A stretch of 64,000 bases of DNA from Bdellovibrio sp. (GTDB taxonomy: Bacteria; Bdellovibrionota; Bdellovibrionia; Bdellovibrionales; Bdellovibrionaceae). The position numbers and the translations under genes are program-made. The first letter of the stretch is position 1. Every line of letters begins with the position of its first letter. The notes below the pieces were generated by a model. That model was not told where the DNA came from. It saw nothing but the letters and a program-made list of their open reading frames with translations, and ran no database searches. This document shows positions 4,847 to 34,281 of this stretch, one piece after another. The stretch lies in assembly GCA_036677065.1 (NCBI GenBank), contig JAKFBS010000004.1:634168-698167 (forward strand), in the 5' to 3' direction.

Positions 4847-4872
4847 TAAAAAATCGTCAATTATGCCGACAA
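4847..4872 (+). promoter_or_regulatory. Sigma28 (FliA)-like promoter of fibre gene 1
   Basis: TAAA-N14-GCCGACAA versus consensus TAAA-N15-GCCGATAA; GTG start 7 nt downstream. Confidence 0.7.
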
Positions 4873-4879
4873 GTTACCT

Positions 4880-7800
4880 GTGGTGAACGTACGTTGGCAG
4901 ACTAAAAATCTGAATCTTTTTGTAATCGTTTTTGTATTCATGTTTATGAATACATCACCGACATTTGCCGGACCAAATCGCACAACCTATCAAGCTAAAA
5001 TTGTAAAACCAGATGGCTATCCACTTGAATCTTCGAGCGTTAATTTTAAATTTACAATTTTAGATCCGACCGGAAGTTGTATTTTATATGCTGAAACTTA
5101 TTCTTCAGTGAATATGTCTTCAACTGGCGGATTAATTTCTTTCTCGTTAGGATCTGGCGTTAAAACATATCCAGCATCAGCTACAACATTTGAACAGGTT
5201 TTTTCTAATATCACTCCGACGTTATCTTGTGATGCCGGTGGACCGCCAAGTTATTCTCCGGCAAGCAGCGACGCGCGAAAAATCGTGATGCAGTTTCATG
5301 ACGGTGCCGGTTGGCAAACTTTGCCTGCGATGAGCATCAACGCTGTACCATATGCAATGTACGCCAGTGAAGCTTCTAGCTTAAATGGTAAAACTGATGC
5401 TGACTTTGTTCAGCTTGCATCGGTGCCAACGTGTTTAACAACAGAAGCTCTGCATTACAACGGCACTAGTTTTTCGTGTGTGAATACGGCGAGTGTTTCT
5501 GCAGCGGCCGTGGTTTCTGCATTAGGTTATACTCCCGCAGATGCGGTGAGCGTGACAGCGCTGAGCTCTTCGTTATCGACGACAGATTCGGCAGTGTCGG
5601 CTGTATCAGCTTCTGTATTTTCAGTAGCCGCTAATGTCGCTTCGGTTTCGTCAAGTGTGTTTGCTGTTTCTTCAACGGTTTCATTATTAGCTAATACAGT
5701 TTCTGCGATCACGTCATCGCAATGGACATCAAGCGGAACAACAGTTTTTTACAATGCTGGAAATGTAGGAATCGGCACAGATAATCCGATCACCACATTA
5801 GAAGTGAGCGGAGCAATTACTGCGACTAACGGAGCGGGCACATTAAATTTACGTGCAGGCGCTGTGCAAGATCATACTTATATGCAATTTTTTGCTCGCA
5901 GTGCAAATCCAGCATCACGTACAGGTTATATTGGATATCCCACAGCTGGCACAAGCCAGCTTAACATCTACAATGAAACTGCAGCTGGCGCCATCGGATT
6001 TGGCACTAATGCCACCTCACGCATGATGATCACGTCTGCCGGTAATATAGGTATTGGTACAACATTGCCGATGACTAAATTAGAAGTTTCTGGCGGCGTA
6101 CGCATCAGTATGGAAGCTGCAACTTGTACTGTCAGTTATGCCGGAACTCTACGTTATAATTCTGGTTTAGTTGAATATTGTAATGGCGCTTCATGGTCAG
6201 CATTTGGTGTGGCCGGTGCAGGGATTACTTTATTTAATGGTTCATCTTCTGGCACACAAACTTTTGTGACGGGAATCAGTGGAACTAATTTTGATATTAC
6301 TTCTTCAAATGGCGTTCATACTTTCAGTATTCCGTTAGCAGCTTCTTCGTCTGTAACTGCCGGTTTATTATCAAATGCAGATTACACGGCGTTCACAAAC
6401 AAAGTTAGTGCAACTAGTGCTTCTGTAATTTCAGCTTTAGGTTATGCACCAGCAAGTGCAACAGGCGTTGCGACTTTAACTTCGAATTTAAATACGGTTT
6501 CATCGACGGTTTCTAGTTTAACGGCATCTACTGCAGCAAGTTTTTCTGCAATTACTTCTTCGCAATGGGTTACAAGCGGTACCGCGATTTACTACAACAC
6601 AGGTGGAGTTGGTATCGGTACATCAAATCCATCAAGTGGATTAACAGTTAACGGACAAGTTGCATTTCAAAATGGTTCTGGCACGGGAATCGGCGCCGTG
6701 TTTAACAATGCAGGATCTTTAAATTTTCAGGCGAATTCGAATTCAAATGGGTTACAACTTGGAACTTCGACGGCAAATCCAATATCTCTTTATACAAATG
6801 GTTCAACAAAAGTAACTGTAACTTCTGGCGGATATATGGGGCTTGGAACTTCGGCTCCGATTTATAATCTGGATATTGCTGGCGGCAGTAATGCAGCCGC
6901 TATTGGTATTACAGGCTCAGGAAATAGCGGGCACACTTCAACTTTATATCTAAATTCAACTGCGGTTTCTGCAACTTCTTATGTAAGACAAGATTCTTTT
7001 GGAAGTTATGCTGCAGGAACTGGTTCGAACGGACATGGATTAAACTTTCTATCGGGTCGTCCGGGCTATAGTAATTTTACATTCCGTGATAGCAATGAAA
7101 ACGTGGGCGTTGCCATCGTTAGTGATTACACAAAAGTAACTTCAATGCCATATGCTGCCCACTTATTAGTAGGTGGTAATGTGGGTATCGGCCGTATTGC
7201 TCCGGTTACAAAACTAGATGTTGCCGGCGGTGTGAAAATCAGTATGGAAGCTGCGACATGTGCGGCAAGTTATGCGGGTACTCTACGTTATAATTCGGGT
7301 TCTGTAGAATACTGTAACGGAACTTCATGGGCCGCTTTCGGAGTTTCGACTTCAGGTTTAACTTCGTTAAATGGATCTAGTTCGCAAACACAAACTTTTG
7401 CAAATGGTGCAACAGGTACTCAGCCTGCGTATGTTACGACAAATGGAGTTCACACTTTAAATATTCCGTTAGCGTCTGCAGGTTCTGTGACTGCGGGTTT
7501 ATTATCAAATGCTGATTACGTTTCATTTTCAAATAAAGTGAATGCAACAAGTGCAGCTATTATTTCTGCTTTAGGTTATACTCCTGCAAATAATGCAGCG
7601 TCGGGAACTTATGCCGTTAAATCTAATAATTTATCTGATTTAACTTCTGCAACGGTAGCACGATCTAATTTAGGCTTAGGTTCAATCGCTTTATTAAATT
7701 CGGTTGATTTAAGCGGATCGCAAGCGACAGGAACTTTAGCTGCAGCACGATTACCGGCACACACGGGCGATGTGCAGTCGTCTGCGGGTTCTGCCGTGTT

Positions 7801-10800
7801 AACTTTAGCTTCGGTTGGTTCAGGTGTAACAAGTGGTTCGCAATACACGAAAGTCACTGTTGATGGTAAAGGCCGCGTAACAAGTGGAGCGCAGTTATCT
7901 GTAACAGATGTGACGACTGCTTTAGGTTACACTCCGGCAAGTGCTTCGGCATCAACGCAGTGGATAACCAGCGGTACAGCGATTAGTTACGTTGCCGGTA
8001 GTGTTGGTATTGGCACTGTTAATCCGGAAGGCCCGTTACATATTTTATCAAGTTCGCCAAACGCCATTATTTTAGAAAGATCGAATTCTAATAATTCACA
8101 TATTCAATATAAAAATACCGCAGGTTCTGTTTATGCGGGCTTAAACATGACAGGTTCTTTTGCTATCGGGCCAAATTTAAATTTATCATCAAGCCCTTTT
8201 CTAACTGTGACCAGTGGAACAGGTAATGTGGGGATTGGCATTGCCGCACCCCAAGAGCAGCTGCATTTAAGTAGAGTTTTAAAATTTACGAATACCGTAG
8301 GAGTCAGTAACTTTCGTGCACCAACAGCCGATAGTTTCAGAATTTTTAACCACGACGATCAAAGCACTGGTAATGCCTACGGCACTGGTGATAATAACGC
8401 GATTATTTTTGAAAATGTTGACAGTAATAATCCGGCACCAGACGACAGTATGTATTTTGTAAATCATGGGTCGAGCGGACCGGTACATGCCCTGACCATC
8501 AAGGGAACTGGCAATATAGGTATTGGATTAATAAACCCAACTGCTAAATTGCATTTAACTTCTGGTTCAACTTCAGTTGCACCGGTAAGAATGACTGCGG
8601 GAAATTTGTTATCGTCTCCACAAGCGGGAGCGATTGAGTATGATGGAACTTCTTTTTATGTAACTGATGGTGCAAATTCACGTAAAGCTATCGTTACTGA
8701 TACGAATGGTTATTACGCTGTTAATACTCTGACATCTGCGGGCCACATGATTTTAGCTCCGACTGGTTCAGTTTTTGTTTCTTCAACCGCAGTTTCAACA
8801 AACTCAAACACTGGCGCCTTAGTTGTGAGTGGCGGTGTCGGCGTTGCCGGAAATATTAATGCTGCTGGAAACATTACAACAACTGCAAATATGCAAGCGG
8901 CGTCGATCACGGCAACAAGCGGAATTATTTCTCCGTATATTGCCGGTAGTGTGGCTTCGGGTGGTGCGATCACAATTGATTCAACAACAAATGCCGGTAA
9001 AGGAAATATTTATTTAAACCCTAACGGCGGCAAAGTGGGTATTGGTTATAATTCACCACTCGGAAAACTTCATATCGGCGGATCAATGTCTGGAGCTTAT
9101 CGCTCTTGGATGGATAACGGTCTATTGATAGGAAAATCTGGCGACAGTGATGGTGGTTATTTCGGTCTAAAAGACGAAGGTTTAAATCGTCAAGACACCG
9201 TCATTGCCTGGGGCGATGATGCAACTGATGTTTTAAGATTCATTCATACATTAAGTGGTGGGGCCTCTGATGGTGCTGAAGCTATGCGAATTACGGCTGG
9301 CGGTAATGTCGGTATTGGAACATCTGCACCTGCACAAAGATTATCGGTGAATGGTGATGTGAGTATTACCGGTGATTTAAGAATGACTGGTAATGATAGC
9401 TACATTTGGACCAACGGATCAGGTACTGGATATACAGGAATTTGGGATACAGCTAATTCTAGAGCGTTACTTTTTACTTCAGAAAATTCAGGCAACGTGG
9501 GTATTAGAACGACAGCTCCTGTCACAGAGTTAGATGTCAGCGGAAGTGTTTTGGTTCGTGGACAAAATATTTTTATGAATCATGATGCTGGTACGAATGT
9601 TAATAATGATTATTTTAATTATGATGATAATGCAGTTTTAGGCGCTGGCGGGGTATTTTCGTTCTTTGCAGATTCTGCGCGTGGTTTAAGTTGGACAGGC
9701 GCGAACGGCGCTATTGCCGCTCGAGCTGGTTACTTTGTGAATAATGTATCTATCGGAACATCAGCAACGACAAGAACACTTGAAGTGAACGGTTCTATTA
9801 ACGCCGGTGGTATGGTTGCAGAGACTTTTACTTTCGGAATCGATGGCACTGTGAATGGAACGTGGGCTATTGGTTCTTTATCAAATAATGGAACTGTCGT
9901 GCATGCAACGTTTGATCTTCACGTGCATAACGGCAGTACTATTGATGCCTTGAAGTTTCAAGTAAGTCTTCCGACCTATTCAAATGGAACTTTCTATTCA
10001 GGCTGGCAAGAGCTTCCGGTCGCATTTGGAAGCTCTGCATGGAATGGTCAGAAAAACTATGTTGTTGATGTATTGCGTACGTCGGCCTCTTCAGGTAATC
10101 CGATTTTCTTTCGTGTCAGAAATAAAGGCGGGAATGGCTCGGCTTCAAGTATGAAAGTGCGTATGACTTATAACAGTGATCAAACTTTTACCCGTATCAC
10201 TCACCAAAATACTGTAGGTACTGCATTTAATGCAGGAACTGCAGCAGCAGGTGGACCGGTTGATGGTATGTATGGTGCTTTAGAGTATTCATTTCCTGTA
10301 GCTGTTGGCCAGGGTTGGAGACCGGCTGATCATAATGGCCTATTTGTTAAAAACAGTGGTTATGTCGGTATCGGCACAAGCACTCCAAGCGAAATGTTAG
10401 AAGTCAGCGGCAGTGTGAAAGCTACAGCTTACTTATACACTTCTGATCGCAGATTAAAAAAAGATATTATCACTTTGCCAGATGCTTTAGCTAGCGTGCT
10501 AAAACTTCGTGGTGTGAATTTCGTCTGGAAAAACAATAATGAAAAAACTGTGGGTTTTATCGCGCAAGAAGTTGAAGCGGTATATCCAGAACTTGTAAAA
10601 ACTGATAAAGTATCGGGCTTTAAAGCTGTTCAGTACGGAAATATCGTAGCGATTTTAGTTGAAGCGATTAAACAAGAAAATAAAGAACGTTTAGAGGCGC
10701 AAAACCGTTGCGAAGCTCAAATTGCAAACGTGCAACGTTCAGTAGCCAGTGGCAGTGATAAATCGGATGCGCGTATCAATCAGCTTGAAAAAGAAAATCT

Positions 10801-10858
10801 AGAGCTTAAAAATCGCTTAGAAAAAATCGAGAAATTCTTAAACGAAAAAGTAAAATGA
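4880..10858 (+). CDS. Fibre 1: secreted MAT-like trimeric tail-fibre adhesin with C-terminal peptidase S74 chaperone (1992 aa)
   Basis: Signal peptide ending TFA|GP; conserved N-domain TYQAKIVKPDGYPLE...WQTLPAMSINAVPYA; many GNVGIGT and ALGYTP repeats; YTKVTVDGKGRVT phage-fibre motif; SDRRLK (Ser codon at 10442) and GFIAQEVE, followed by a coiled coil. Confidence 0.9.
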   Translation: MVNVRWQTKNLNLFVIVFVFMFMNTSPTFAGPNRTTYQAKIVKPDGYPLESSSVNFKFTILDPTGSCILYAETYSSVNMSSTGGLISFSLGSGVKTYPASATTFEQVFSNITPTLSCDAGGPPSYSPASSDARKIVMQFHDGAGWQTLPAMSINAVPYAMYASEASSLNGKTDADFVQLASVPTCLTTEALHYNGTSFSCVNTASVSAAAVVSALGYTPADAVSVTALSSSLSTTDSAVSAVSASVFSVAANVASVSSSVFAVSSTVSLLANTVSAITSSQWTSSGTTVFYNAGNVGIGTDNPITTLEVSGAITATNGAGTLNLRAGAVQDHTYMQFFARSANPASRTGYIGYPTAGTSQLNIYNETAAGAIGFGTNATSRMMITSAGNIGIGTTLPMTKLEVSGGVRISMEAATCTVSYAGTLRYNSGLVEYCNGASWSAFGVAGAGITLFNGSSSGTQTFVTGISGTNFDITSSNGVHTFSIPLAASSSVTAGLLSNADYTAFTNKVSATSASVISALGYAPASATGVATLTSNLNTVSSTVSSLTASTAASFSAITSSQWVTSGTAIYYNTGGVGIGTSNPSSGLTVNGQVAFQNGSGTGIGAVFNNAGSLNFQANSNSNGLQLGTSTANPISLYTNGSTKVTVTSGGYMGLGTSAPIYNLDIAGGSNAAAIGITGSGNSGHTSTLYLNSTAVSATSYVRQDSFGSYAAGTGSNGHGLNFLSGRPGYSNFTFRDSNENVGVAIVSDYTKVTSMPYAAHLLVGGNVGIGRIAPVTKLDVAGGVKISMEAATCAASYAGTLRYNSGSVEYCNGTSWAAFGVSTSGLTSLNGSSSQTQTFANGATGTQPAYVTTNGVHTLNIPLASAGSVTAGLLSNADYVSFSNKVNATSAAIISALGYTPANNAASGTYAVKSNNLSDLTSATVARSNLGLGSIALLNSVDLSGSQATGTLAAARLPAHTGDVQSSAGSAVLTLASVGSGVTSGSQYTKVTVDGKGRVTSGAQLSVTDVTTALGYTPASASASTQWITSGTAISYVAGSVGIGTVNPEGPLHILSSSPNAIILERSNSNNSHIQYKNTAGSVYAGLNMTGSFAIGPNLNLSSSPFLTVTSGTGNVGIGIAAPQEQLHLSRVLKFTNTVGVSNFRAPTADSFRIFNHDDQSTGNAYGTGDNNAIIFENVDSNNPAPDDSMYFVNHGSSGPVHALTIKGTGNIGIGLINPTAKLHLTSGSTSVAPVRMTAGNLLSSPQAGAIEYDGTSFYVTDGANSRKAIVTDTNGYYAVNTLTSAGHMILAPTGSVFVSSTAVSTNSNTGALVVSGGVGVAGNINAAGNITTTANMQAASITATSGIISPYIAGSVASGGAITIDSTTNAGKGNIYLNPNGGKVGIGYNSPLGKLHIGGSMSGAYRSWMDNGLLIGKSGDSDGGYFGLKDEGLNRQDTVIAWGDDATDVLRFIHTLSGGASDGAEAMRITAGGNVGIGTSAPAQRLSVNGDVSITGDLRMTGNDSYIWTNGSGTGYTGIWDTANSRALLFTSENSGNVGIRTTAPVTELDVSGSVLVRGQNIFMNHDAGTNVNNDYFNYDDNAVLGAGGVFSFFADSARGLSWTGANGAIAARAGYFVNNVSIGTSATTRTLEVNGSINAGGMVAETFTFGIDGTVNGTWAIGSLSNNGTVVHATFDLHVHNGSTIDALKFQVSLPTYSNGTFYSGWQELPVAFGSSAWNGQKNYVVDVLRTSASSGNPIFFRVRNKGGNGSASSMKVRMTYNSDQTFTRITHQNTVGTAFNAGTAAAGGPVDGMYGALEYSFPVAVGQGWRPADHNGLFVKNSGYVGIGTSTPSEMLEVSGSVKATAYLYTSDRRLKKDIITLPDALASVLKLRGVNFVWKNNNEKTVGFIAQEVEAVYPELVKTDKVSGFKAVQYGNIVAILVEAIKQENKERLEAQNRCEAQIANVQRSVASGSDKSDARINQLEKENLELKNRLEKIEKFLNEKVK

Positions 10859-12330
10859 AAAAGCTTTTAGTTTTACTTGTTTTTATGCCCATGCTGATCG
10901 GGATTAATAACCTGACCGATGGCTATCGGATTCCTGCCGCCGGTGGATCAATGCGCATCTATGCGAAAAATGGCGGCGCTCAGGGAGCTTGTTATACGGT
11001 TCAAAATAATCACGGAACAAATGACTTATTTGTCCCGACAAAGTCCACGACCGAGTGGGCATCGTTTATTACTAATGCACCAACCTTTGTTGCAAAAGCT
11101 TTATGTCAGCCAAAATCATGTAAAGAGATTATGACTTTAATGGGGAATCCTGCTGACGGAGTTTACACCATTGATTCAGATGGCGCCGGAGCCGGTGCTT
11201 CCTATCAAACTTACTGTGATATGACGACAGACGGCGGCGGCTGGACAAGAATTTTTCGCCATCATGTGCAAGGCGGATATTTCGCAACGACATCTGATGC
11301 GATCAGTAAAAATACGAACGATGCCAATCACAATCTGTATTCGGCATTAGATAAAATTCCTGATTTTATCAGTAATGGAAAATATCGCTTTCGTATGAAT
11401 TGGCCAGGTTATTCAGAGAAAAATATTTGGATACAGACAACGAATCCATTAGACGATGTGGATGTAGCGGGTGTTGTTCCGATTGCAGTGAATACCTTTA
11501 CACAAACAAGATTACTTAATTGGGGTGGAATTGAACTGGGTAACGGGACACATGGCCCAACCAACGGAGATGCTTCATTAATTGATGGATCTATTGAACA
11601 TGGCAATTGGTTTTTTGCCATTGGCAGTGATGCTCCATATTCTACTCCGCCGGGCATTCCGGCCGATACGCCGCTTCTTGCTAGTGGTGGGGTTTCTGAA
11701 ACGGTGTTATGGATTAAAGAAGATGATGTCGTCGTGTCTTACAACTCATGTAAAGCGATTTTAGATGCGGGTGCGTCAACAGGTTCAGGAATTTACACAA
11801 TTGATCCGGGAAGTCTTGGTTCACCAATTCCGGTTTACTGTGACATGACGAGCGATGGTGGCGGCTGGACACGAGCTTTTTATCATACCGCTTCGGGATC
11901 ACTTTTTGTGAACAACGCAGAAGCGCTTTCAAGTAATCAGACAGCACCGCTGACCACAACAAAATATTCTATTTTAAATCGCCTGTCAGGATTTCTGCGT
12001 GCCGGAAAATTTGAATTAAAAATTGATTGGCCATTGAGTCCGAATCCTACTATTAGAAATTGGTGGACACAAACCAGTGATTTTACTTCGCAACCAGTGG
12101 CAGGTTATGTCGGAGTTTCAATCGGCACATCAACACAAGGCTGGGGCGGCTTAGAATACGGAACGCCCGGAACAACGCTTGCTGATGGTTCGGTGGGAAC
12201 AGGTTCTTATTGGTATGCGATTGGCTTAAATGCACTTTGGGGAGCAAACAATCCTGGGTTGCCATCGTCTGAAGAAGTTGCTGGGGCGCCAGACACGGGA
12301 GTACCCCGGGTCGAACTTTGGGTTAAGTAA
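10855..12330 (+). CDS. Secreted protein with two tandem fibrinogen/intelectin-like domains; partner of fibre 1
   Basis: ATGA overlap with the fibre 1 stop; hydrophobic N-terminus; two copies of SCxxI...GxYTIDxxG...YCDMTxDGGGWT; N-terminal LFVPTKxxxEWxSF domain. Confidence 0.85.
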   Translation: MKKLLVLLVFMPMLIGINNLTDGYRIPAAGGSMRIYAKNGGAQGACYTVQNNHGTNDLFVPTKSTTEWASFITNAPTFVAKALCQPKSCKEIMTLMGNPADGVYTIDSDGAGAGASYQTYCDMTTDGGGWTRIFRHHVQGGYFATTSDAISKNTNDANHNLYSALDKIPDFISNGKYRFRMNWPGYSEKNIWIQTTNPLDDVDVAGVVPIAVNTFTQTRLLNWGGIELGNGTHGPTNGDASLIDGSIEHGNWFFAIGSDAPYSTPPGIPADTPLLASGGVSETVLWIKEDDVVVSYNSCKAILDAGASTGSGIYTIDPGSLGSPIPVYCDMTSDGGGWTRAFYHTASGSLFVNNAEALSSNQTAPLTTTKYSILNRLSGFLRAGKFELKIDWPLSPNPTIRNWWTQTSDFTSQPVAGYVGVSIGTSTQGWGGLEYGTPGTTLADGSVGTGSYWYAIGLNALWGANNPGLPSSEEVAGAPDTGVPRVELWVK

Positions 12331-12350
12331 TTTTAACAAGATTTAGATTC

Positions 12351-12367
12351 TGTTTCATGTTGAAACA
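12351..12367. promoter_or_regulatory. Perfect palindrome TGTTTCA-TGT-TGAAACA
   Basis: Starts 65 nt before the -10 element of fibre gene 2. Confidence 0.7.
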
Positions 12368-12415
12368 ATCCACTAAACAAAAACCAAAATTAATCTTCAT
12401 TTTAATGTCAAAAAT

Positions 12416-12423
12416 ACCGACAA
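12416..12423 (+). promoter_or_regulatory. Sigma28-like -10 element (ACCGACAA) of fibre gene 2
   Basis: 7 nt before GTG at 12431; -35 region is weak (TCAT). Confidence 0.6.
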
Positions 12424-12430
12424 GAATGCT

Positions 12431-15400
12431 GTGATGGACGTTGCTGGAACCACTAAAAATTTGAATGTTTTTAGATTGTTAGTCGTTTTTATTTTTATAA
12501 ACGCGTCGCTAGCTTTTGCCGGTCCAAATCGCACAACCTATCAAGCCAAAATCATGAAGCCTGATGGTTATCCCTTAGAAGCTTCAACTGTAAATTTTAA
12601 ATTTTCAATTTTAAGTCCGGCAGGCGATTGTATTTTATATGCTGAAACTTATTCTTCTGTGAATATGTCTTCAACGGGTGGATTAATTTCTTTTGCTCTT
12701 GGTTCTGGAGTAAAAACTTATCCAGTATCGGCGACGACTTTTGAACAAGTTTTTTCTAACATCACACCAAGTTTATCTTGTGATGTCGGCGGCCCAGGTA
12801 ATTACGTGCCCCTGGCCAGCGATTCAAGAAAAGTTGTTATGCAGTTTCATGACGGTGCCGGATGGCAGACGCTTCCTGCAATGAGCATCAATGCCGTGCC
12901 ATATGCGATGTATGCCAATGAATCTTTAAAATTAAATGGCAAAGCTGACACTGACTTCGTTCAGGTGGCTGCGATTCCGACATGTTTATCAACTGAAGCC
13001 CTTCAGTATAACGGAACCAGTTTTTTATGTGTAAGTACGACAACTGTTTCAGCAGCCGCTGTTGTTGCAGCTCTTGGTTATACACCGGCAACGGGTGCAA
13101 GTGTTACGGCACTTTCATCTTCATTATCAACAACAGATGCAACTGTAGCTTCAGTTTCATCAGCGGTATTTTCTGTTTCTTCAACGGTATCAACTTTAGC
13201 AAGTTCTGTTGCGGCAAGTTTTACTTCGATTACTTCTTCGCAGTGGTTAACTAGTGGCACGGCAATTTCGTATGATTCTGGAAATGTTGGCATCGGCACG
13301 ACAGCACCAGTAACTAAATTAGAAGTTTCTGGCGGCGTGCGTATAAGTATGGAAGCCGCAACTTGTACTGTCAGTTATGCCGGAACTCTACGTTATAATT
13401 CTGGTTTAGTCGAATATTGTAATGGCGCTTCATGGTCAGCGTTTGGCGTGGCCGGTGCAGGGATTACTTTATTTAATGGTTCGTCTTCTGGCACACAAAC
13501 TTTTGTGACTGGAATTAGCGGAACAAATTTTAATGTTACAACGAATAACGGAGTTCATTCTTTTAATATTCCGTTGGCAGCATCGGCTGCTGTGACGGCG
13601 GGTTTATTATCAAATGCAGATTATGTAACTTTTAATGCGAAAATGAATGCAACCAGTGCGGCGGTGATTTCAGCAATGGGTTACACGCCGGCAAATTCAA
13701 GCACGGTAGCAACACTTTCTTCAGTTTTAAATACAGTTTCTTCGACGGTGACTAGTTTAACTTCAGATACTGCCGCAAGTTTTGCGGCGATCACTTCATC
13801 ACAATGGGTAACTAGTGGTTCAACTATTAATTACACTGCCGGCGCTGTAGGGATTGGAACTACGAATCCGGGTGCATTATTAGATTTAACTGCAGATCTT
13901 GGCAGTGGACCATCGCTAAATATATACAATACGAACACATCTGATGGTCGTTCGGTTATGCATTTTCGTAACGATAGAGTTTCAAGTCAAAGATACGAAG
14001 TGGGTATTGACCCAGGTGGTTCGACTACAAAAAATTTCGCTGTTCGTGATTTGACAGCCTCGGGTTCACCAGTGCGCTTTGCGATTGCGCCCAATGGCAG
14101 AGTAGGTCTCGGCACAGCAAGCCCGCTGGCGCCGTTAGATGTTTCAGGAACAATTCGCAGTGCGATTACTGCTGATGGCAATTTTTTTACATTGCAAAGA
14201 ACAGGAAATAGAATTCACTATGTGCAAGGCACAGGACAACTTTTACGATTAAATTCTGATAGTCCGACGACTTATGATTTTCAATTAGATGCGGCAAACG
14301 GAAATATTTTTATGGCCACAGGTTTTGGTAACGTGGGTATAGGAATCGCATCACCTAATGCAAGACTTCATTTAGCTTCGGGATCAATGACGGTAGCTCC
14401 GCTTAAAATTACCTCAGGTACACTATTGTCTGCAGCGCAAGCTGGTGCTGTTGAATATGATGGTTCTTATTACTACATCACTGATGGAGCAAATACCCGT
14501 CGCGCGATTGCAACAGTAGCAAATCCAGGAACCTACGATAACGCTTCAAATATTTCTTCTACAGGAAATATCACGATGACTCCAACGGGATCAGTGATTG
14601 TTTCAAGCACAACAGCTTCAACAAATTCTAGTACTGGTGCTTTAGTTGTGAATGGTGGCTTAGGTGTAGCGGGCGCGATCAATGCCGCTGGCAACATTGC
14701 AACGACAGCAAATATCCAAGGAACATCGATCACGGCAACCAGTGGAATGATCACTCCTTATATCTATGGATCGACGGCAGCGAGTGGAGTGTTAACTTTA
14801 GATTCAACAACGAATGCGGCTAAAGGCAATATAGTAATGAATCCATCCGGTGGCAATGTCGGCATTGGAACATCAGTTCCCACAACTAAATTAGCTGTAA
14901 ATGGTGCAGCTGGAAGTGGACACGTATTTACTGTAACAAATACTTCAGCGTCAGCAGGCTATTCAGGTAGTTTTAATTTAGCCGCACCCAATTTAGCAAA
15001 TGGAGAGACTTTATTTTTTAACATGGGTAAAGCAGCCTCAACAAATAATCGTGCAGCTGTTACCTATGTACATGCGGCAGACGGAAGTGCGAGCAACAGG
15101 ATTTCTCTTGGATTTTTTGGGAACGACAATATATTAAATACACTCGCAAGTGGAAACGTCGGTGTGGGAACAAGTGCTCCGACAACAAAATTATATGTAA
15201 GCGGAAATGGTTCTAATGCACAAATGACAATAGATTATGGTGTAGGTGGAAAATTTGCTGAATTTAGAGCTGGAACTACTGGCTCTGCAATTGGTTACGA
15301 CGCATCATCTGCTTTTAACATTGGACCTGTAACAGGTCATGGGCAAGCCAGTTTAGATAGTGTTGCAATGACTTTTAATGCAGGAAACGTTGGTGTGGGA

Positions 15401-17917
15401 GTTACGGCACCAAGTGCAAGACTTCATTTAGCTTCGGGATCAACAACTGTAGCACCGCTTAAATTCACATCAGGAAGTTTATTAGCATCTCCTGCATCTG
15501 GTGCTGTTGAGTATGATGGTACTTATTACTACATCACTGATGGAGCAAATACTCGTCGCGCGATTGCGACAGTAGCAAATCCAGGAACCTACGATAACGC
15601 TTCAAATATTTCTTCTACAGGAAATATCACGATGACTCCAACGGGATCAGTGATTGTGTCTAGCACGACAGCTTCGACGAATTCACAAACCGGCGCACTC
15701 GTTGTAAAAGGTGGTCTTGGTGTTGCGGGTAATATTTATTCAAGCGGAACAATCGTAACCTCTTCGAATATCGAAGGTAATGGTATTAAAACTAAAGGAA
15801 CAACAGCTTATTTAGAAATGCACGATACAAACACTCTGTATTCAGCAAGCCCACAATCTGCACTAGTTTTCAGAGATAGCGGAAATTCACAATACAGTTT
15901 TATCGGGCCAAGCAATGGTTCGATGATCTGGAACAGTTGGTTGCCTATCGAATTAGACACCACCGGTGGTGTTGATTTATATGTAAGTCTAAATGGTAAA
16001 GTGGGTATTGGAACATCGTCACCAACAAGTAATTTAGATATTAGCCCTGTTGGTAGTATTGCAGATAATACATCAGCACTAAAAGTTGGCGGAACAGCTT
16101 CGGCTCCGATTGCAGGAAGTTACGGAAGTTCAAAAATTTCACTGAGCGCAAATTATATAGGTTACGGCGCTGGCCCGCGCGCGATTAATCTTTATCCATC
16201 TACGCAAGTTGACGGGCATGGTATTGGTTTATCAAATGGCTTAACAGAATTATACTCTAACGGAAATTTTGGTTTCTTTGTTAGACCAAATCGCGCTGAT
16301 GTGAATGGAACATATGCTTCAACAGAAGTGGTCAGAATGACTTCGACGGGACGTATGGGTATCGGCACCAGCGCGCCAGCAACGCAATTACATATTAAAG
16401 GAACTGGTCCGTATATAGCTTTTGAAGACTCAGAAGATCCTAATGGTTCATACGGTACTATTACGCAGTTTCAAAACGGCAACATGTTCTACGATGCGGA
16501 TTTTAATAATACGGCAACACCAGGTGGTCATGTTTTTAGAACAGACGGCGGCGCAAATACGATTATGACTATGACCAGTTCAGGTCATGTCGGCATTGGC
16601 ACAACAGCACCAGAAGTTAATCTACATGTTAACAATACGACAGCTCCGCATGCTTCGGGAACCGAAATACTTCGTTTAACTGCACCTCATCTAGGTGCAA
16701 CTATAGGTAGCGGCGGAATTTTAAAATTCACAAATAATGTGGCTACAGCAGATGCTGCCGCTATTAAAACTTATACTCACGGAGCGAATGACGTTTCATT
16801 AAAATTTATGACTGGATACGGGTCTGGAACTTTGCAAGACCGTATGACAATTGCCAATAATGGTAATGTGGGTATTGGTACGGCAACGCCAGCGCAAAAA
16901 TTATCTGTCGTCGGTGATGTGTCTGTGACTGGTCAGGTCACCTCAAAAGATTTTTTTGAAAAATCAATTAACATTGCAGATGGCTGGGCTATCGGAGATT
17001 ATGTTGAAATAGTTCAAGGCTGGCCAAATGGTGCCGGGGCTTCAAGTAATTGGGAAGTGCATGTGGGTGGTACGCGCGGTAATTGGACCGAAGGCACGAC
17101 TTATCTAATCACAGGAACGCATGCTGTGGGCAATGCATGGAGAGAAGCACCTCATAGTTCTGAAAGCGGCTATACTGGCGGTAGTAAATGTTTTACCGTT
17201 GATATAAATGGCAACGGAAATTCTCCGCAATTCAGAATCAGAGCCGTAAAAGCTAGTGTTAGTTGTGGTACGGCTGGACCTGTGTTGCCATTAAATTTCA
17301 GAATAAGATCACTTGGAAATAACACGACTTGGACAAGTTTATCTGCGACCGGCACTGGCGCAACAGTAGTTGGTATGCAGCCTATGGGATTATCTTGGAA
17401 TGTTTATACAGGAAATCCGCAAGGTAATGGCAATTTGGCCATTCATGCAAATAGTGCCGGCAATGTCGGTATCGGAACAACTGCACCGAGTGAAAAGTTA
17501 GAAGTCAGCGGCAGTGTGAAAGCTACAGCTTATTTATATACTTCGGATGAACGTCTGAAAAAAGAAATTATCACTTTACCTGATGCACTGACAAAAGCTT
17601 TGCAGCTTCGCGGTGTGAATTTCGTCTGGAGAAATAACAACGAAAAAACTGTGGGCTTTATTGCCCAAGAAGTTGAAGCTGTTTATCCTGAGTTAGTAAA
17701 AACTGATAAAGTTTCTGGGTTTAAAGCCGTGCAATACGGCAATATCGTAGCGATTTTAGTTGAGGCGTTAAAACAAGAACACGAAGAGCGCGTCAGATCA
17801 GTGGCCAACGTGGCCGAAAAATCTGAAGTTCGTATGAATCAACTTGAAAAAGAAAATCAGGATCTTAAAGCGCGTCTTGAAAAACTAGAAAAATTCTTTA
17901 GCGAAAAGAAAAAATGA
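12431..17917 (+). CDS. Fibre 2: MAT-like fibre adhesin with C-terminal S74 chaperone (1828 aa)
   Basis: Same N-domain and repeats as fibre 1; SDERLK (Ser codon at 17543) and GFIAQEVE; tip and chaperone nearly identical to fibre 1. Confidence 0.9.
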   Translation: MMDVAGTTKNLNVFRLLVVFIFINASLAFAGPNRTTYQAKIMKPDGYPLEASTVNFKFSILSPAGDCILYAETYSSVNMSSTGGLISFALGSGVKTYPVSATTFEQVFSNITPSLSCDVGGPGNYVPLASDSRKVVMQFHDGAGWQTLPAMSINAVPYAMYANESLKLNGKADTDFVQVAAIPTCLSTEALQYNGTSFLCVSTTTVSAAAVVAALGYTPATGASVTALSSSLSTTDATVASVSSAVFSVSSTVSTLASSVAASFTSITSSQWLTSGTAISYDSGNVGIGTTAPVTKLEVSGGVRISMEAATCTVSYAGTLRYNSGLVEYCNGASWSAFGVAGAGITLFNGSSSGTQTFVTGISGTNFNVTTNNGVHSFNIPLAASAAVTAGLLSNADYVTFNAKMNATSAAVISAMGYTPANSSTVATLSSVLNTVSSTVTSLTSDTAASFAAITSSQWVTSGSTINYTAGAVGIGTTNPGALLDLTADLGSGPSLNIYNTNTSDGRSVMHFRNDRVSSQRYEVGIDPGGSTTKNFAVRDLTASGSPVRFAIAPNGRVGLGTASPLAPLDVSGTIRSAITADGNFFTLQRTGNRIHYVQGTGQLLRLNSDSPTTYDFQLDAANGNIFMATGFGNVGIGIASPNARLHLASGSMTVAPLKITSGTLLSAAQAGAVEYDGSYYYITDGANTRRAIATVANPGTYDNASNISSTGNITMTPTGSVIVSSTTASTNSSTGALVVNGGLGVAGAINAAGNIATTANIQGTSITATSGMITPYIYGSTAASGVLTLDSTTNAAKGNIVMNPSGGNVGIGTSVPTTKLAVNGAAGSGHVFTVTNTSASAGYSGSFNLAAPNLANGETLFFNMGKAASTNNRAAVTYVHAADGSASNRISLGFFGNDNILNTLASGNVGVGTSAPTTKLYVSGNGSNAQMTIDYGVGGKFAEFRAGTTGSAIGYDASSAFNIGPVTGHGQASLDSVAMTFNAGNVGVGVTAPSARLHLASGSTTVAPLKFTSGSLLASPASGAVEYDGTYYYITDGANTRRAIATVANPGTYDNASNISSTGNITMTPTGSVIVSSTTASTNSQTGALVVKGGLGVAGNIYSSGTIVTSSNIEGNGIKTKGTTAYLEMHDTNTLYSASPQSALVFRDSGNSQYSFIGPSNGSMIWNSWLPIELDTTGGVDLYVSLNGKVGIGTSSPTSNLDISPVGSIADNTSALKVGGTASAPIAGSYGSSKISLSANYIGYGAGPRAINLYPSTQVDGHGIGLSNGLTELYSNGNFGFFVRPNRADVNGTYASTEVVRMTSTGRMGIGTSAPATQLHIKGTGPYIAFEDSEDPNGSYGTITQFQNGNMFYDADFNNTATPGGHVFRTDGGANTIMTMTSSGHVGIGTTAPEVNLHVNNTTAPHASGTEILRLTAPHLGATIGSGGILKFTNNVATADAAAIKTYTHGANDVSLKFMTGYGSGTLQDRMTIANNGNVGIGTATPAQKLSVVGDVSVTGQVTSKDFFEKSINIADGWAIGDYVEIVQGWPNGAGASSNWEVHVGGTRGNWTEGTTYLITGTHAVGNAWREAPHSSESGYTGGSKCFTVDINGNGNSPQFRIRAVKASVSCGTAGPVLPLNFRIRSLGNNTTWTSLSATGTGATVVGMQPMGLSWNVYTGNPQGNGNLAIHANSAGNVGIGTTAPSEKLEVSGSVKATAYLYTSDERLKKEIITLPDALTKALQLRGVNFVWRNNNEKTVGFIAQEVEAVYPELVKTDKVSGFKAVQYGNIVAILVEALKQEHEERVRSVANVAEKSEVRMNQLEKENQDLKARLEKLEKFFSEKKK
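14513..15657 (+). repeat. Internal direct repeat in fibre 2: 89 nt identical at 14513-14601 and 15569-15657, inside a larger near-identical module
   Basis: Both copies encode TVANPGTYDNASNISSTGNITMTPTGSVIV; offset 1056 nt, in frame. Confidence 0.9.
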
Positions 17918-19374
17918 AAAAGCTTCTAGTTTTACTTATCTTTTTGCCAATGCTGATCGGGATTAATAATCTGACCGATGGTTACCGCATTCCTGGCGCC
18001 GGTGGTTCATTGCGTATTTATGCAAAAAGCGGTGCTTCTGTAGGTGCCTGTTATGTTGTTCAGAATAATCATGCGACAAATGATTTATTTGTTCCGACAA
18101 AAACGCCGGCCGAGTGGCTATCTTTTATTACCAATACGCCTGGCTTTGCTACAAAAACTTTATGCCAGCCGAAATCATGTTTAGAAATTAAGAATCTACT
18201 GACAAGTTCTACTGACGGAGTTTACACGATTGATTCTGATGGTGTCGGGGCGGGTGTAAGTTACCAGACTTATTGTGATATGACTTTAGATGGTGGTGGA
18301 TGGACGCGAATTTTTCGCCATCATGTGGCTGGCGGATATTTTTCTACCACTGCAGATGCGATTAGTAAAAATACCGGTGATGCCACAAATAATTTATATT
18401 CGGCACTTGATAAAATTCCAGATTTTATCAGCAATGGTAAATACCGATTTCGTATGAACTGGCCCGGATTTTCGCAAAAAAATATTTGGTTGCAAAGTAC
18501 GAATCCGCTCAGTGACGTCGTCACCGCAGGCGTTGTTCCGATTGCGGTAAACGCGTATTCTGATACCCGCATCCAAAATTGGGGAGGCCTAGAGCTTTCA
18601 AGCGGAACCCACGGCCCACCGATTGGATCATCTTTACTTGATGGTTCTGTGCAACATACTAACTGGCATTACGCGGTCGGAAGTATTGCAGCTTATTCTA
18701 CTCCGCCGGGAATTCCCGCCGATACCAGTATTTTAACAGGTGGTGTTTCTGAAACGGTGTTGTGGATCAAAGAAGATGATGTTGTGACTTCGTACAATTC
18801 GTGTAAAGCGATCTTGGATGCAGGAGCTTCAACTGGAAGTGGTCTTTACACGATTGATCCCGGAAATCTGGGATCACCGATTTCGGTCTTTTGTGACATG
18901 ACAACAGATGGTGGCGGTTGGACAAGAGCTTTTTATCATACAGTTTCAGGCGCGTTGTTTGTAAATAACGCCGAAGCATTAAATAGTAATCAGAGTGCAC
19001 CCCTCAATAAGATTAAATACTCAATCTTAAATCGTCTTTCTGGATTTTTACGAGCCGGAAAATTTGAATTAAAAATAAATTGGCCAGACAGCGGAAGCGC
19101 TGCGCGCAATTGGTGGACACAAACCAGCAACTTCACGTCGCAACCTGCGGCTGGTTATGTTGGTGTAGCCATTGATTCTACAAGTAATTATTGGGGTGGC
19201 TTAGAATTCGGAAGTGAAGGTACAACTTTAGCAGATGGTTCAGTTAATCATGGTAATTGGTTTTATTCTATTGGGGCACAAACCACATGGGGAACTCCTG
19301 ATGGGCTTCCGGCTTCAGAGCAACTTTTTCCTGGCGGGGTGGGTGTGCCTAAAGTCGAACTTTGGATCAAGTAG
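17914..19374 (+). CDS. Secreted tandem fibrinogen/intelectin-like domain protein; partner of fibre 2
   Basis: ATGA overlap with the fibre 2 stop; colinear paralog of 10855-12330 with two CDMTxDGGGWT motifs. Confidence 0.85.
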   Translation: MKKLLVLLIFLPMLIGINNLTDGYRIPGAGGSLRIYAKSGASVGACYVVQNNHATNDLFVPTKTPAEWLSFITNTPGFATKTLCQPKSCLEIKNLLTSSTDGVYTIDSDGVGAGVSYQTYCDMTLDGGGWTRIFRHHVAGGYFSTTADAISKNTGDATNNLYSALDKIPDFISNGKYRFRMNWPGFSQKNIWLQSTNPLSDVVTAGVVPIAVNAYSDTRIQNWGGLELSSGTHGPPIGSSLLDGSVQHTNWHYAVGSIAAYSTPPGIPADTSILTGGVSETVLWIKEDDVVTSYNSCKAILDAGASTGSGLYTIDPGNLGSPISVFCDMTTDGGGWTRAFYHTVSGALFVNNAEALNSNQSAPLNKIKYSILNRLSGFLRAGKFELKINWPDSGSAARNWWTQTSNFTSQPAAGYVGVAIDSTSNYWGGLEFGSEGTTLADGSVNHGNWFYSIGAQTTWGTPDGLPASEQLFPGGVGVPKVELWIK

Positions 19375-19454: not shown

Positions 19455-22400
19455 GTGAAAAGTACACGTTGGCAGGATAATTTTCTGAACCATTTTGCGT
19501 TTTTATTTTTTGTGTTTACACTGCTAAACACATTGAATGCATTTGCAGGTCCAACACGCACAACGTACCAAGCTAAAATTGTTAAACCCGATGGTTACCC
19601 GCTGGAAGCCGCAAGCGTAAATTTTAAATTCACGATTTTGGATCCTTCAGGAAGCTGTATTCTTTTTGCTGAAACTTATAATTCAGTGAACATGTCTTCA
19701 ACCGGTGGGTTAATTTCTTTTTCACTGGGTGCAGGTGTAAAAACTTTTCCGGTCAGTGGTACAACATTCGAACAAATTTTTTCTAACATTACGCCGAACA
19801 TGGCTTGTGATACGGGCGGTGCACCTGCGGTTTATACGCCGATGGCTAATGATGCCCGTAAGATCGTGATGCAGTTTCATGATGGGGGCGGCTGGCAAAC
19901 ATTGCCTGCGATGAATATCAATGCTGTGCCTTATGCGATGTATGCCAATGATTCACAAAAATTTAATGGCATGGCTCCATCTGAATTTGTGCAAGTGTCG
20001 ACAATTCCAACGTGCACAGCTTCAGAAGCTTTACGCTACACAGGTTCAGCTTTTCAATGTGTTGCCGCTGGTGGATCAGGACCTGTCAGTTCAGGTTCTG
20101 TTATCACAGCACTTGGTTATACGCCGGCAGATAGTGCAACTGTATCGACAGTTTCTACATACGCATCGAATGTAAGTTCAACGGTGTTTTCAATTTCTTC
20201 GACGGTTTCGTCATTTCAATCTTCAGTGGCGGCAAGTTTTTCAGCCATTGTGAATTCACAGTGGATAACAAGTGGCACTGCTATTGGCTATGATGCGGGT
20301 CGAGTTGGTATTGGCACTTTAAATCCTGCGTATAACTTACATGTCATGCAACCAGTGAGCGGTCCAACCAGCGTTATGATCGATGCTTTTTCTGGAACAC
20401 CTGGAATTTATTTTCGTAAAGCTAACGGCACGGCAGCGGCTCCGCAGGCCGTGTCAAATGCCACAGCCCTTTTAGAAATTGCAGCAGTTGGCCACGGGCA
20501 AACGGCATACCTTGCAAGTTCAGCGGCAAAAATGATTATGGCTGCCGAAGAAGATTGGACAGACGCAACAGGTGCAGCTTCGATTCGTTTTCACACGCGT
20601 GGTTCAAGTACAACCACAGCTTCATCAGAAAGAATGCGTATCGATAAAAATGGTAACGTCGGTATTGGCACTGTTACACCAATGACTAAGTTAGATGTTT
20701 CAGGCGGTGTGCGTATCAGTATGGAAGTTGCAGCCTGTGCTGTAAGTTTTGCCGGTACTCTTCGTTATAATTCTGGTGTTGTTGAATATTGTAATGGATC
20801 AGCGTGGACTCAATTTGGAGTAAGTGGTGCAGGCATCACAGCGTTGAATGGATTAGTTTCTGGATCGCAAACTTTTGCGCTCGGAAATTCGGGAACGTTA
20901 CCAAATATTTCTTCAACAGGTTCGGTTCATACTTTTAATTTTCCGTATGCGGCTTCAGCAGGGGTTACTTCAGGTTTAATTTCAAACACTGATTACGCAA
21001 CTTTTAATAATAAACAATCAGCCACAAGTGCTGCGATGATTGTAACACTTGGGTATACTCCGGCAAATGCTGTGAGTGTAACAACTCTGTCTTCAACGCT
21101 AGCAACAATGCAAGCTTCTGTTGCCACCATCACAAGTTCACAATGGGTAACCAGCGGGTCTGCGATTTATTACAATGCAGGTAATGTAGGTATCGGCACA
21201 AGTTCTCCGGCGTCTCGCTTAGATTTATCAGCTAATGCTGTTGTTGATGCCAACACTTTAACATTTAGTAATTTGACTCAAAGTACAAATGTCATTCTGC
21301 GCACAAAAGACTATATGAATAATTTAGGCTGGCAAATCGCAGCAGCCGGTGGTTCGCAAGAATTATTTCATATTCGTGATGGCGCAGGTAACCCAAGATT
21401 ATTTATTAACACAGCTAACAACACAATGGGTGTGGGTGCTGCAAGTGCTACCGCAAGATTACATATTACTTCTGGTACAGCCGCTATTCCTGCCTTCAAA
21501 TTTACTTCTGGCACATTAGTAACTACACCACAATCAGGTTCGATGGAATTTGATGGGTTTAATTTTTATTTAACAGATACCTCAGGAATTCGTCGTGCGA
21601 TTGCGACAGGTGCCAGTTCAAGCAGTATTGATAATGCGTCGATAATTAATTCATCAGGCAATATCACGATGGTTCCGCAAACGGGATCAGTGATCGTGTC
21701 GAGCACAACGGCCAGCATAAATTCAGCAACGGGTGCGCTTATTGTAAATGGCGGAGTGGGTATAGCAGGGGATGCTAATATTGCCGGAACACTAACCGCA
21801 GGCCATGCGATTATGGGATTATCGACGGGAATGGTTGGCATCGGTGCTTCAACGCCGACGACAAAACTTGATGTTAGATCTGAAGGAGCGATCAAAGTCG
21901 CGCGCATTCAGTACAGTGGCTCTGGTTTTTCAACTCAGCCTAATTTAGAAATGTTTCGCTCGCGCGGAACAATTGATTCGCCAACGGCAGTTTTAGCTAA
22001 TGATGTATTAGGTTCTTGGTCTGCCATCGGTCACAATGGTGTATCGTTTGGTGCAGGATCAACAGCTGGGATCTTAATTCGTGCTACCCAAAATTTTTCG
22101 GGTACAAGTGCTGGGTCATATATGACATTTAATACGACGGCCTCAGGTACGTCGACCCAAGTTGAAAGAATGCGTATTGATAATCTGGGTAATATGGGTT
22201 TAGGCACGACAGCTCCAGATGCTCGTTTAGATGTGGTTGGGGCAATTAAAATTACCGGATTTTCATCTGGAACTTTCATGTATGTAAATGATAATGCCAG
22301 TAGCGGTACGCCGTTAAATGACGGAGCCCGTTTCGTTTACGATGGTAACGCTTTTGGAGGTAACTATGATGCCATTGTTTTTGAAAAAACAGATGCAAAC

Positions 22401-24200: not shown

Positions 24201-24244
24201 CCTGCGAAACTAGACCAGTTAACGATTCGCTTTGAGACAAAACC

Positions 24245-24261
24245 TGTTTCAAATTGAGTCA
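24245..24261. promoter_or_regulatory. Palindrome-like site TGTTTCA-AAT-TGAGTCA (second degenerate copy at 24223-24239)
   Basis: Starts 53 nt (second copy 75 nt) before the -10 element of fibre gene 4. Confidence 0.6.
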
Positions 24262-24278
24262 TTCCCTGTATCTAAAAT

Positions 24279-24305
24279 TAAAAACAAATTCAATTATTCC
24301 GATAA
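24279..24305 (+). promoter_or_regulatory. Sigma28-like promoter of fibre gene 4
   Basis: TAAA-N15-TCCGATAA with canonical spacing; in-frame GTG 7 nt downstream at 24313. Confidence 0.75.
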
Positions 24306-24312
24306 GTTAAGA

Positions 24313-29298: not shown

Positions 29299-29326
29299 AA
29301 ATCATATTATATTTGCTCTAATAACT

Positions 29327-29353
29327 TAATCAAAGTGCTATAAATTCCGATAG
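29327..29353 (+). promoter_or_regulatory. Sigma28-like promoter of fibre gene 5
   Basis: TAAT-N15-TCCGATAG; GTG 7 nt downstream; no upstream palindrome found. Confidence 0.6.
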
Positions 29354-29360
29354 GTTAGCT

Positions 29361-34157: not shown

Positions 34158-34164
34158 TCTGCGA

Positions 34165-34181
34165 AATCTCAAATTGAAACA
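34165..34181. promoter_or_regulatory. Degenerate palindrome AATCTCA-AAT-TGAAACA
   Basis: Same motif family; starts 103 nt before the -10 element of fibre gene 6. Confidence 0.5.
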
Positions 34182-34267
34182 CTCGAAATTTTTTTAGAAT
34201 GATCTAATTGTAGCAGTCGTTTACCAATGAAAATCTGTTTCTGAAGCCTCTAGGAGTAAGCACTTTT

Positions 34268-34275
34268 GCCGATAA
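34268..34275 (+). promoter_or_regulatory. Perfect sigma28 -10 element GCCGATAA of fibre gene 6
   Basis: 6 nt before GTG at 34282. Confidence 0.7.
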
Positions 34276-34281
34276 GAAAGT

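Follow-up and report, generated by a model that had tools for sequence, protein, structure and literature searches.

A shared fibre tip and a candidate docking domain pair S74 fibres with secreted fibrinogen-fold partners in Bdellovibrio

Results

Two fibres with one tip and a partner each

The stretch analysed here, called the window, comprises 64,000 nucleotides (nt) of Bdellovibrio sp. (assembly GCA_036677065.1, contig JAKFBS010000004.1, positions 634,168 to 698,167, forward strand) and contains six tandem fibre genes, F1 to F6. This report concerns F1 and F2, each of which is followed by a gene for a secreted-looking partner (P1 and P2) that begins with a small N-domain (ND). As judged from the sequences, both fibres end in a bare aromatic tip, and the partners likely clip onto it via ND; their two heads, of fibrinogen fold and with the prey surface as the predicted target, would thereby be displayed.

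F1 to F5 carry Pfam Peptidase_S74, which F6 lacks. In F1 and F2 the S74 domain (PF13884) is detected at E 7e-16 and 2e-14, and the SDxxxK motif reads SDRRLK and SDERLK. The tip LEVSGSVKATAYLYT stands directly before SD in both fibres, within identical DNA of exactly 36 nt at 10396 and 17497, and no adhesin domain is seen in either fibre past the last capping-loop motif. Both fibre-partner junctions are 4-nt overlaps, ATGA. The tips of F3 to F5 are unrelated to that of F1 and F2, and no partner gene lies behind them. Genome-wide, the F1/F2-type tip occurs in 2 of 16 S74 fibres, and ND is found in two open reading frames (ORFs) only, P1 and P2. An earlier note on this DNA, made from the letters alone, had described the partners and ATGA overlaps as confined to the first two fibres, their common tip with about 36 identical nt and the unrelated tips of fibres 3 to 5; all of this holds. 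It had also called the two chaperones near-identical, which overstates an identity of 81% over 90 amino acids (aa); other chaperone pairs share 35–51%.

The resemblance between the two pairs is uneven. The tip region is 80% identical between F1 and F2, the chaperone 81% and the partners 73–77%, yet the 170 residues preceding the tip are only 27% identical. Because tip, chaperone and partner are alike while the shafts differ, the pairs probably go back to a single cassette that was duplicated and joined to two shafts, and do not count as two independent cases.

Several features indicate that F1 and F2 fit the S74 subgroup of the MAT fibres. Residues 30–175 of F1 to F5, a conserved N-terminal domain after the signal peptide, are 77–83% identical. 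A profile of this domain gives 21 strong matches in this genome and also matches the fibre of a named Bdellovibrio bacteriovorus locus (L139). Capping-loop repeats, V-G-I-G/N-x-x-x-P-x-x-x-L, recur along both shafts, including immediately before the tip. By analogy with Bd3182 and other MATs, F1 and F2 would form trimers, cleave themselves and be displayed on the cell surface.

Table 1. Features of the fibre array in the window.
Feature	Position	Strand	Description
F1	4880..10858	+	predicted MAT-type trimeric fibre, 1992 aa, C-terminal S74 chaperone
F1 bare tip	10400..10441	+	last 14 residues before the putative S74 cleavage site, EVSGSVKATAYLYT
F1 S74 chaperone/autoprotease and coiled coil	10442..10858	+	begins SDRRLK; release predicted from Bd3182
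P1	10855..12330	+	secreted-looking partner, 491 aa, ATGA overlap with F1
P1 ND	10903..11106	+	proposed docking adaptor; five strands and one helix predicted; Cys46, Cys84
P1 fibrinogen-related heads (two)	11107..12327 (11107-11730, 11737-12327)	+	
F2	12431..17917	+	predicted MAT-type trimeric fibre, 1828 aa, C-terminal S74 chaperone
F2 bare tip	17501..17542	+	protein sequence identical to F1 tip
F2 S74 chaperone	17543..17917	+	81% identity to F1 chaperone over 90 aa
P2	17914..19374	+	secreted-looking partner, 486 aa, ATGA overlap with F2
P2 ND	17962..18165	+	75% identity to P1 ND
P2 fibrinogen-related heads (two)	18166..19371 (18166-18780, 18787-19371)	+	
F3, F4, F5 (S74, other tips) and F6 (non-S74)	19455..36987	+	neighbouring fibres without partner; internal negative controls

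The partners and their heads

P1 and P2 are built much as the earlier note had read them, with a signal-like N-terminus, a small domain (about 62 residues; about 65 had been given) and Pfam Fibrinogen_C (PF00147) twice per protein. In the model of P1 (predicted local distance difference test, pLDDT, 90.9) the heads match whole fibrinogen-related domains by fold, those of MFAP4, tenascin and ficolins best, at E about 1e-7 over 220–245 columns, with a template modelling score to the target of 0.5–0.6 and 14–21% identity. Sequence matches to intelectin, tenascin and ficolin, with the motif YCDMxxDGGGW, reach only the first 50–100 residues of a head, and intelectin is absent among the fold matches listed. 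The description as fibrinogen/intelectin-like is thus right as to the fibrinogen fold and not specific as to intelectin. The ligand-binding subdomain allows no sequence alignment to fibrinogen-related domains, and a sugar site cannot be deduced because the similarity ends after those first 50–100 residues. A glycan is no more than a plausible ligand of the heads, because the closest folds include protein-binding domains.

ND itself follows a signal-like stretch and is marked by conserved C, N, F-[VI]-P-T-K-T, E-W, F, P and C, which include one invariant Trp and a Cys pair. Its model (pLDDT 87) has five strands and one helix. Known families offer little: with 28 members no Pfam match is better than E 0.008 and one member has one weak PHROG match, a PDB sequence search gives no match, and fold searches reach Z 3.1 at best with nothing from Foldseek at E 0.001, which is no proof of a new fold. 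A protein atlas returns viral clusters at best scores of 0.78–0.79, a lead only.

Among 390 genomes of the class Bdellovibrionia, an ND profile detects 130 copies in 71. The domain is N-terminal in 107 of 107 proteins and preceded by a hydrophobic stretch in 100. What follows it varies greatly. Fifty-five heads, picked from 103 so as to skip near-duplicates and some open-ended ones, were scanned against Pfam, and 33 gave matches: glycine-rich 13, fibrinogen 10, LamG 5, Lcl 2, fn3 2, and FGE-sulfatase, TIG and arabinofuranosidase-like one each; 22 had no match. Kelch and RCC1 heads were also seen on ND proteins. The fibrinogen-fold heads of P1 and P2, which the earlier note had proposed as lectin heads, are one head type among many on ND. 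The first reading had also missed that many ND genes lie apart from any fibre and that ND can outnumber tip fibres by up to 12 to 1, as in genome G061 with 12 ND genes and one tip fibre. A fibre-ND fusion, sought among longer proteins, was not found in 28 matches, a count that carries little weight.

Three further sequences touch on ND. A 1039-aa non-fibre ORF (L357:1909-5028, minus strand), lying divergent from a small tip-class fibre, has an ND-like stretch (E 6e-6) in its interior, a placement seen in no other case. A 139-aa partial partner (P0159), labelled Micromonospora, comes from a 420-nt contig and is probably contamination. A precomputed GP38 label on another protein, P0126, was not reproduced.

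Linkage of tip and ND within the class

The 390 genomes include 258 that are S74-positive, with at least 977 S74 matches. A strict tip motif occurs 28 times in 26 of the genomes and a relaxed motif, derived from ND-adjacent fibres, 68 times in 56, against one match for the reversed control. Among the S74-positive genomes 49 have both tip and ND, 7 the tip only, 17 ND only and 185 neither. The association is also visible within genera: in the same order the counts are 19, 0, 3 and 22 in genus g4, 6, 1, 3 and 31 in g1, and 5, 0, 2 and 9 in g106. The p-values for such counts are not relied on, because kin are not independent. ND lies directly behind 33 of the 68 tip fibres. Where no ND adjoins the tip fibre, ND is present elsewhere in 20 of 27 genomes, compared with 17 of 202 tip-less genomes. 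The co-occurrence of tip type and partner N-domain that the earlier note had expected is therefore clearly borne out, and far beyond this genome.

Nine of the 17 genomes with ND and no recognised tip were inspected. In four (G010, G133, G135, G198) a tip of the same class had been missed by the pattern; in G053 the locus ends at the contig end; in G018 the ORF upstream is a remnant without a tip; and in G015, G160 and G186 no fibre was seen in the stretch fetched.

Viewed from the fibres, an ND gene comes immediately after 70 of 184 distinct S74 fibres, and 69 of these 70 end in [FY]-x-[YH]-x before SD, the other having a tip variant one residue shorter; the 69 of 70 is a conditional figure and not a prevalence, because the loci were fetched by ND or by tip. 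Within the 70, F or Y is retained at position -4 in 69, Y or H at -2 in 69, and A or G at -7 in 68, and class-specific conservation is strongest across the seven residues that directly precede SD. What sets the released chaperone apart from other S74 domains is chiefly a pair of positions, G66 and N67, which are enriched in tip fibres (0.61 vs 0.08 and 0.24).

A census of 11 ND-bearing genomes comprised 87 distinct fibres, of which 3 were dropped for having under 500 nt downstream. ND stands behind 0 of 64 fibres with other tips and behind 6 of 20 tip fibres. Seven look-alike short tips that lack Y or H at -2 have no ND behind them.

In three genomes (G256, G101, G331) small tip-class fibres with open frames of 330–390 aa stand in tandem (L290, L312, L317, L318), and ND genes are nearby, not directly behind.

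Linkage beyond the 390 genomes

Searching with ND alone led to loci from Peribacteria, Saccharibacteria, Gracilibacteria, SR1, Taylorbacteria, an archaeon, Bacteriovoracaceae and proteobacteria. Ten of the loci contain an S74 gene; each of the 10 has an aromatic tip, and in six the tip fibre stands directly before ND. The pair thus recurs in bacteria of the candidate phyla radiation (CPR) and in an archaeon. Metagenomes searched by ND alone gave 80 loci with 42 distinct S74 fibres, 37 of which are directly before ND; 36 of the 37 end in [FY]x[YH]x and 26 match the stricter A-x-x form, and the tip is also borne by the 5 fibres that are not adjacent. As a background, 25 sampled genomes from the phylum of genome G391 yielded 10 S74 loci, with the class tip in 0 of 6 readable ones and ND at 0 of 10. 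An SR1 bacterium (L329, L138) has a tip-class fibre followed by a gene whose start is ND-like but diverged, scoring under the profile threshold, and then by a run of three ND genes.

The search was also run in reverse. Tip patterns alone retrieved 14 viral contigs, 13 of them with downstream DNA. In all 13 the next gene lacks a signal peptide and its start is weakly ND-like (E 3e-4 to 7e-3), while the best other segment of 396 reaches E 4.8; hhalign gives a probability of 91% for the ND likeness. A profile built from these viral genes has true ND segments in all of its top 40 ranks among 14,645. The 13 cases are not independent, because they form about three families. At these loci (L154, L342–L356) the fibres are tail fibres of phage type that bear the same tip, and the signal-less genes behind them, with the ND-like start, measure 165–205 aa. 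One such fibre was scanned and matches tail fibre PHROGs; one ND-like gene was scanned and has no PHROG match. A tblastn search with one ND query in 50,697 GenBank phage records gave no match. Two loci from an ND scan of viral contigs were discarded, one as a chance motif in a polymerase-like protein and the other for want of an ND profile match.

Other features of the fibre array

The array closes with F6, a sixth MAT fibre that the earlier note did not mention, non-S74 and 901 aa long (34282-36987). The sequence CCGACAA stands before F1 (4866-4872, plus strand) and again before F2 (12417-12423), and half of the fibre-like genes in the genome, 11 of 22, have CCGA[CT]AA close to their start, against 0.05 expected per region. 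The sequence resembles the consensus -10 element of sigma-28 (FliA), a factor with a role in the attack phase. A scan for sigma-70 promoters and terminators stayed at about chance level.

Elsewhere in the genome three other fibres (C8:150862-154077, C2:794070-798230, C4:104245-106950) are followed by large secreted-looking genes without ND, across overlaps of 4 nt and 17 nt and a gap of 10 nt. These are possibly a second kind of fibre-partner system.

Discussion

Proposed docking and its alternatives

The following order of events is proposed. The genes of fibre and partner are translationally coupled, and each product starts with a signal-like stretch, so that both may be exported. The fibre would trimerise, and the S74 domain, as in Bd3182, would cut itself off before SD. 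The free end V-x-G-x-V-x-A-x-x-[FY]-x-[YH]-[ST] would then remain, and ND, going by the gene linkage, would bind this exposed aromatic end. Specificity would depend on the domain behind ND, and where a genome has several ND genes, a single fibre would receive different heads. ND is thus probably a docking adaptor that acts in the way of phage gp38 through a different predicted fold.

Several observations weigh against this reading. All support for docking by ND is of a genomic kind. There is some circularity in the adjacency counts of the class set, because the relaxed tip pattern came from ND-adjacent fibres; 35 of the 68 tip fibres have no ND directly behind, ND was not detected in 7 of the 56 tip genomes, and S74 was not detected in 5 genomes with ND. 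Others among these observations bear on a specific alternative, namely that fibre and partner are co-inherited and co-expressed and make no contact, the partner being an adhesin in its own right, secreted or on the surface, and the tip no more than the mark of one S74-cassette lineage. On a quick S74 tree of 105 columns the tip label is clustered, with 16 changes against 60 when shuffled, and the counts are inflated by shared descent for that reason. Phylogenetic contrasts in 6 well-supported pairs are not significant (median 3 the same way, 0 opposite, p about 0.25) and are underpowered. Covariation between tip and ND in 47 non-redundant pairs shows no excess over shuffles, 17.5% of which reach the top score. 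The many ND genes that stand without an adjoining fibre suit an independent adhesin. So does a B. bacteriovorus record, L148, in which both partners are intact behind a tip-less fibre remnant. The remnant (L148:2146-2913) is 255 aa long and keeps the C-terminal coiled coil, without tip and S74 core. Nevertheless, co-inheritance without contact is unlikely. Unlinked ND genes still track the presence of the tip, at least 6 of the label changes are forced by well-supported branches with ND going the opposite way in no contrast, and the pairing persists in bacteria, an archaeon and phage contigs despite the exchange of shafts and heads.

Alternatively, ND may bind the tip only transiently, as a chaperone of folding, capping or export, with the bare tip itself as the adhesin. 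Lambda Tfa and T4 gp38 are precedents of the chaperone type, the latter encoded by a downstream gene that merely assists folding, and head-less ND-only proteins of about 90–125 aa, which count against docking as well, would suit such a role. We consider it quite unlikely, since most ND proteins bear large and varied heads of binding families (the 33 of 55 with a Pfam match), up to 12 ND proteins per genome face a single tip fibre, and the fibre has an S74 chaperone of its own.

That ND binds the fibre stably at another site, either an uncleaved S74 domain or the capping-loop repeat before the tip, is improbable: tip and S74 do travel together as one cassette, and G66 and N67 of S74 are enriched in tip fibres, but the class-specific conservation is strongest in the last seven residues before SD and several ND-adjacent fibres have no capping loop directly before the tip. 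Two loci (L183, L184) with an identical S74 stretch and differing tips both keep ND, which does not separate the tip from an S74 site.

Docking of ND on the processed tip could have a wider bearing. It is about an even question whether a universal plug and socket, so far undescribed, is made up of ND and the [FY]-x-[YH]-x tip and is common to phage tail fibres and to the surface fibres of bacteria and archaea that are predatory or host-dependent; in it, a dispersed library of ND heads on one fibre would set prey or host range combinatorially after translation and not by tip swaps. Such docking would bear on how Bdellovibrio recognises a broad prey range and on how CPR bacteria and small archaea grip their hosts. 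A docking domain with swappable heads would, if real, add a second layer of diversity beyond tip swapping inside single genes; tip motif and ND together would give a sequence rule for reading attachment repertoires from genomes; and a 62-residue domain that could attach any fold to a fibre would serve well as a tool for display.

Comparison with known systems

The heads of P1 compare with fibrinogen-related domains (MFAP4, tenascin, ficolins, FIBCD1 and intelectin), and their fold matches cover the whole domain. P1 and P2 differ from them in having no collagen or coiled-coil stalk and in the low identity already given.

The comparison with gp37 and gp38 made in the earlier note is sound as an analogy and fails as homology. 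In phage S16, as far as the available text goes, the gene behind a trimeric beta-helical fibre likewise encodes a distinct adhesin, which attaches by its N-terminal domain and has a variable head (PMC6851490), and P1 and P2 share with gp38 their place right behind a trimeric fibre that carries a chaperone. Both gp38 and ND proteins can have glycine-rich heads. According to the same text, gp38 of S16/T2-like phages attaches to gp37 by three helices and three Trp, one adhesin capping the trimer (PDB 6F45; PMC6851490). Because of those three helices and three Trp, ND, with five predicted strands, one helix and one invariant Trp, does not belong with the gp38 attachment domain, and no sequence or fold match of ND to 6F45 is among the matches listed. 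Similarly, the heads of P1 and P2 have the fibrinogen fold, unlike the polyglycine sandwich head of gp38. ND proteins also differ from gp38 in that they have signal peptides, come with heads of many families and occur as several paralogues in one genome.

Among the closest known systems are the S74 MAT fibres of B. bacteriovorus, which in the portions available have a signal peptide, a conserved N-terminal domain, capping-loop repeats and a C-terminal S74 domain with SDxxxK, with about 21 fibres per genome (PMC10769870), as here. Caulton et al. 2024 showed the self-cleavage and the trimer structure of Bd3182 and placed the binding sites in the fibres (PMC10769870). The available text and supplement of that study contain no partner protein, fibrinogen or gp38, and no description of fibre-ND pairing was found in the literature covered, a 2026 review included (PMC13689555, in its available part); subscription journals lie mostly outside that coverage. 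In the available account the published MATs are single-gene adhesins whose diversity is explained by tip swapping inside single genes (PMC10769870), whereas F1 and F2 are paired with secreted-looking partner genes. The same pairing is seen directly at the named B. bacteriovorus locus L139, where a fibre is followed by ND. It also concerns a listed MAT: Bd2582 is entered as an S74 MAT with nothing further in the available text (PMC10769870), and its orthologue in strain 109J is AHZ85081.1, with AHZ85080.1 and AHZ85079.1 falling in clusters of two ND-fibrinogen proteins. Going by accession numbering, AHZ85081.1 appears to be followed by these two ND proteins, and the question is thereby open to a direct test in B. 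bacteriovorus.

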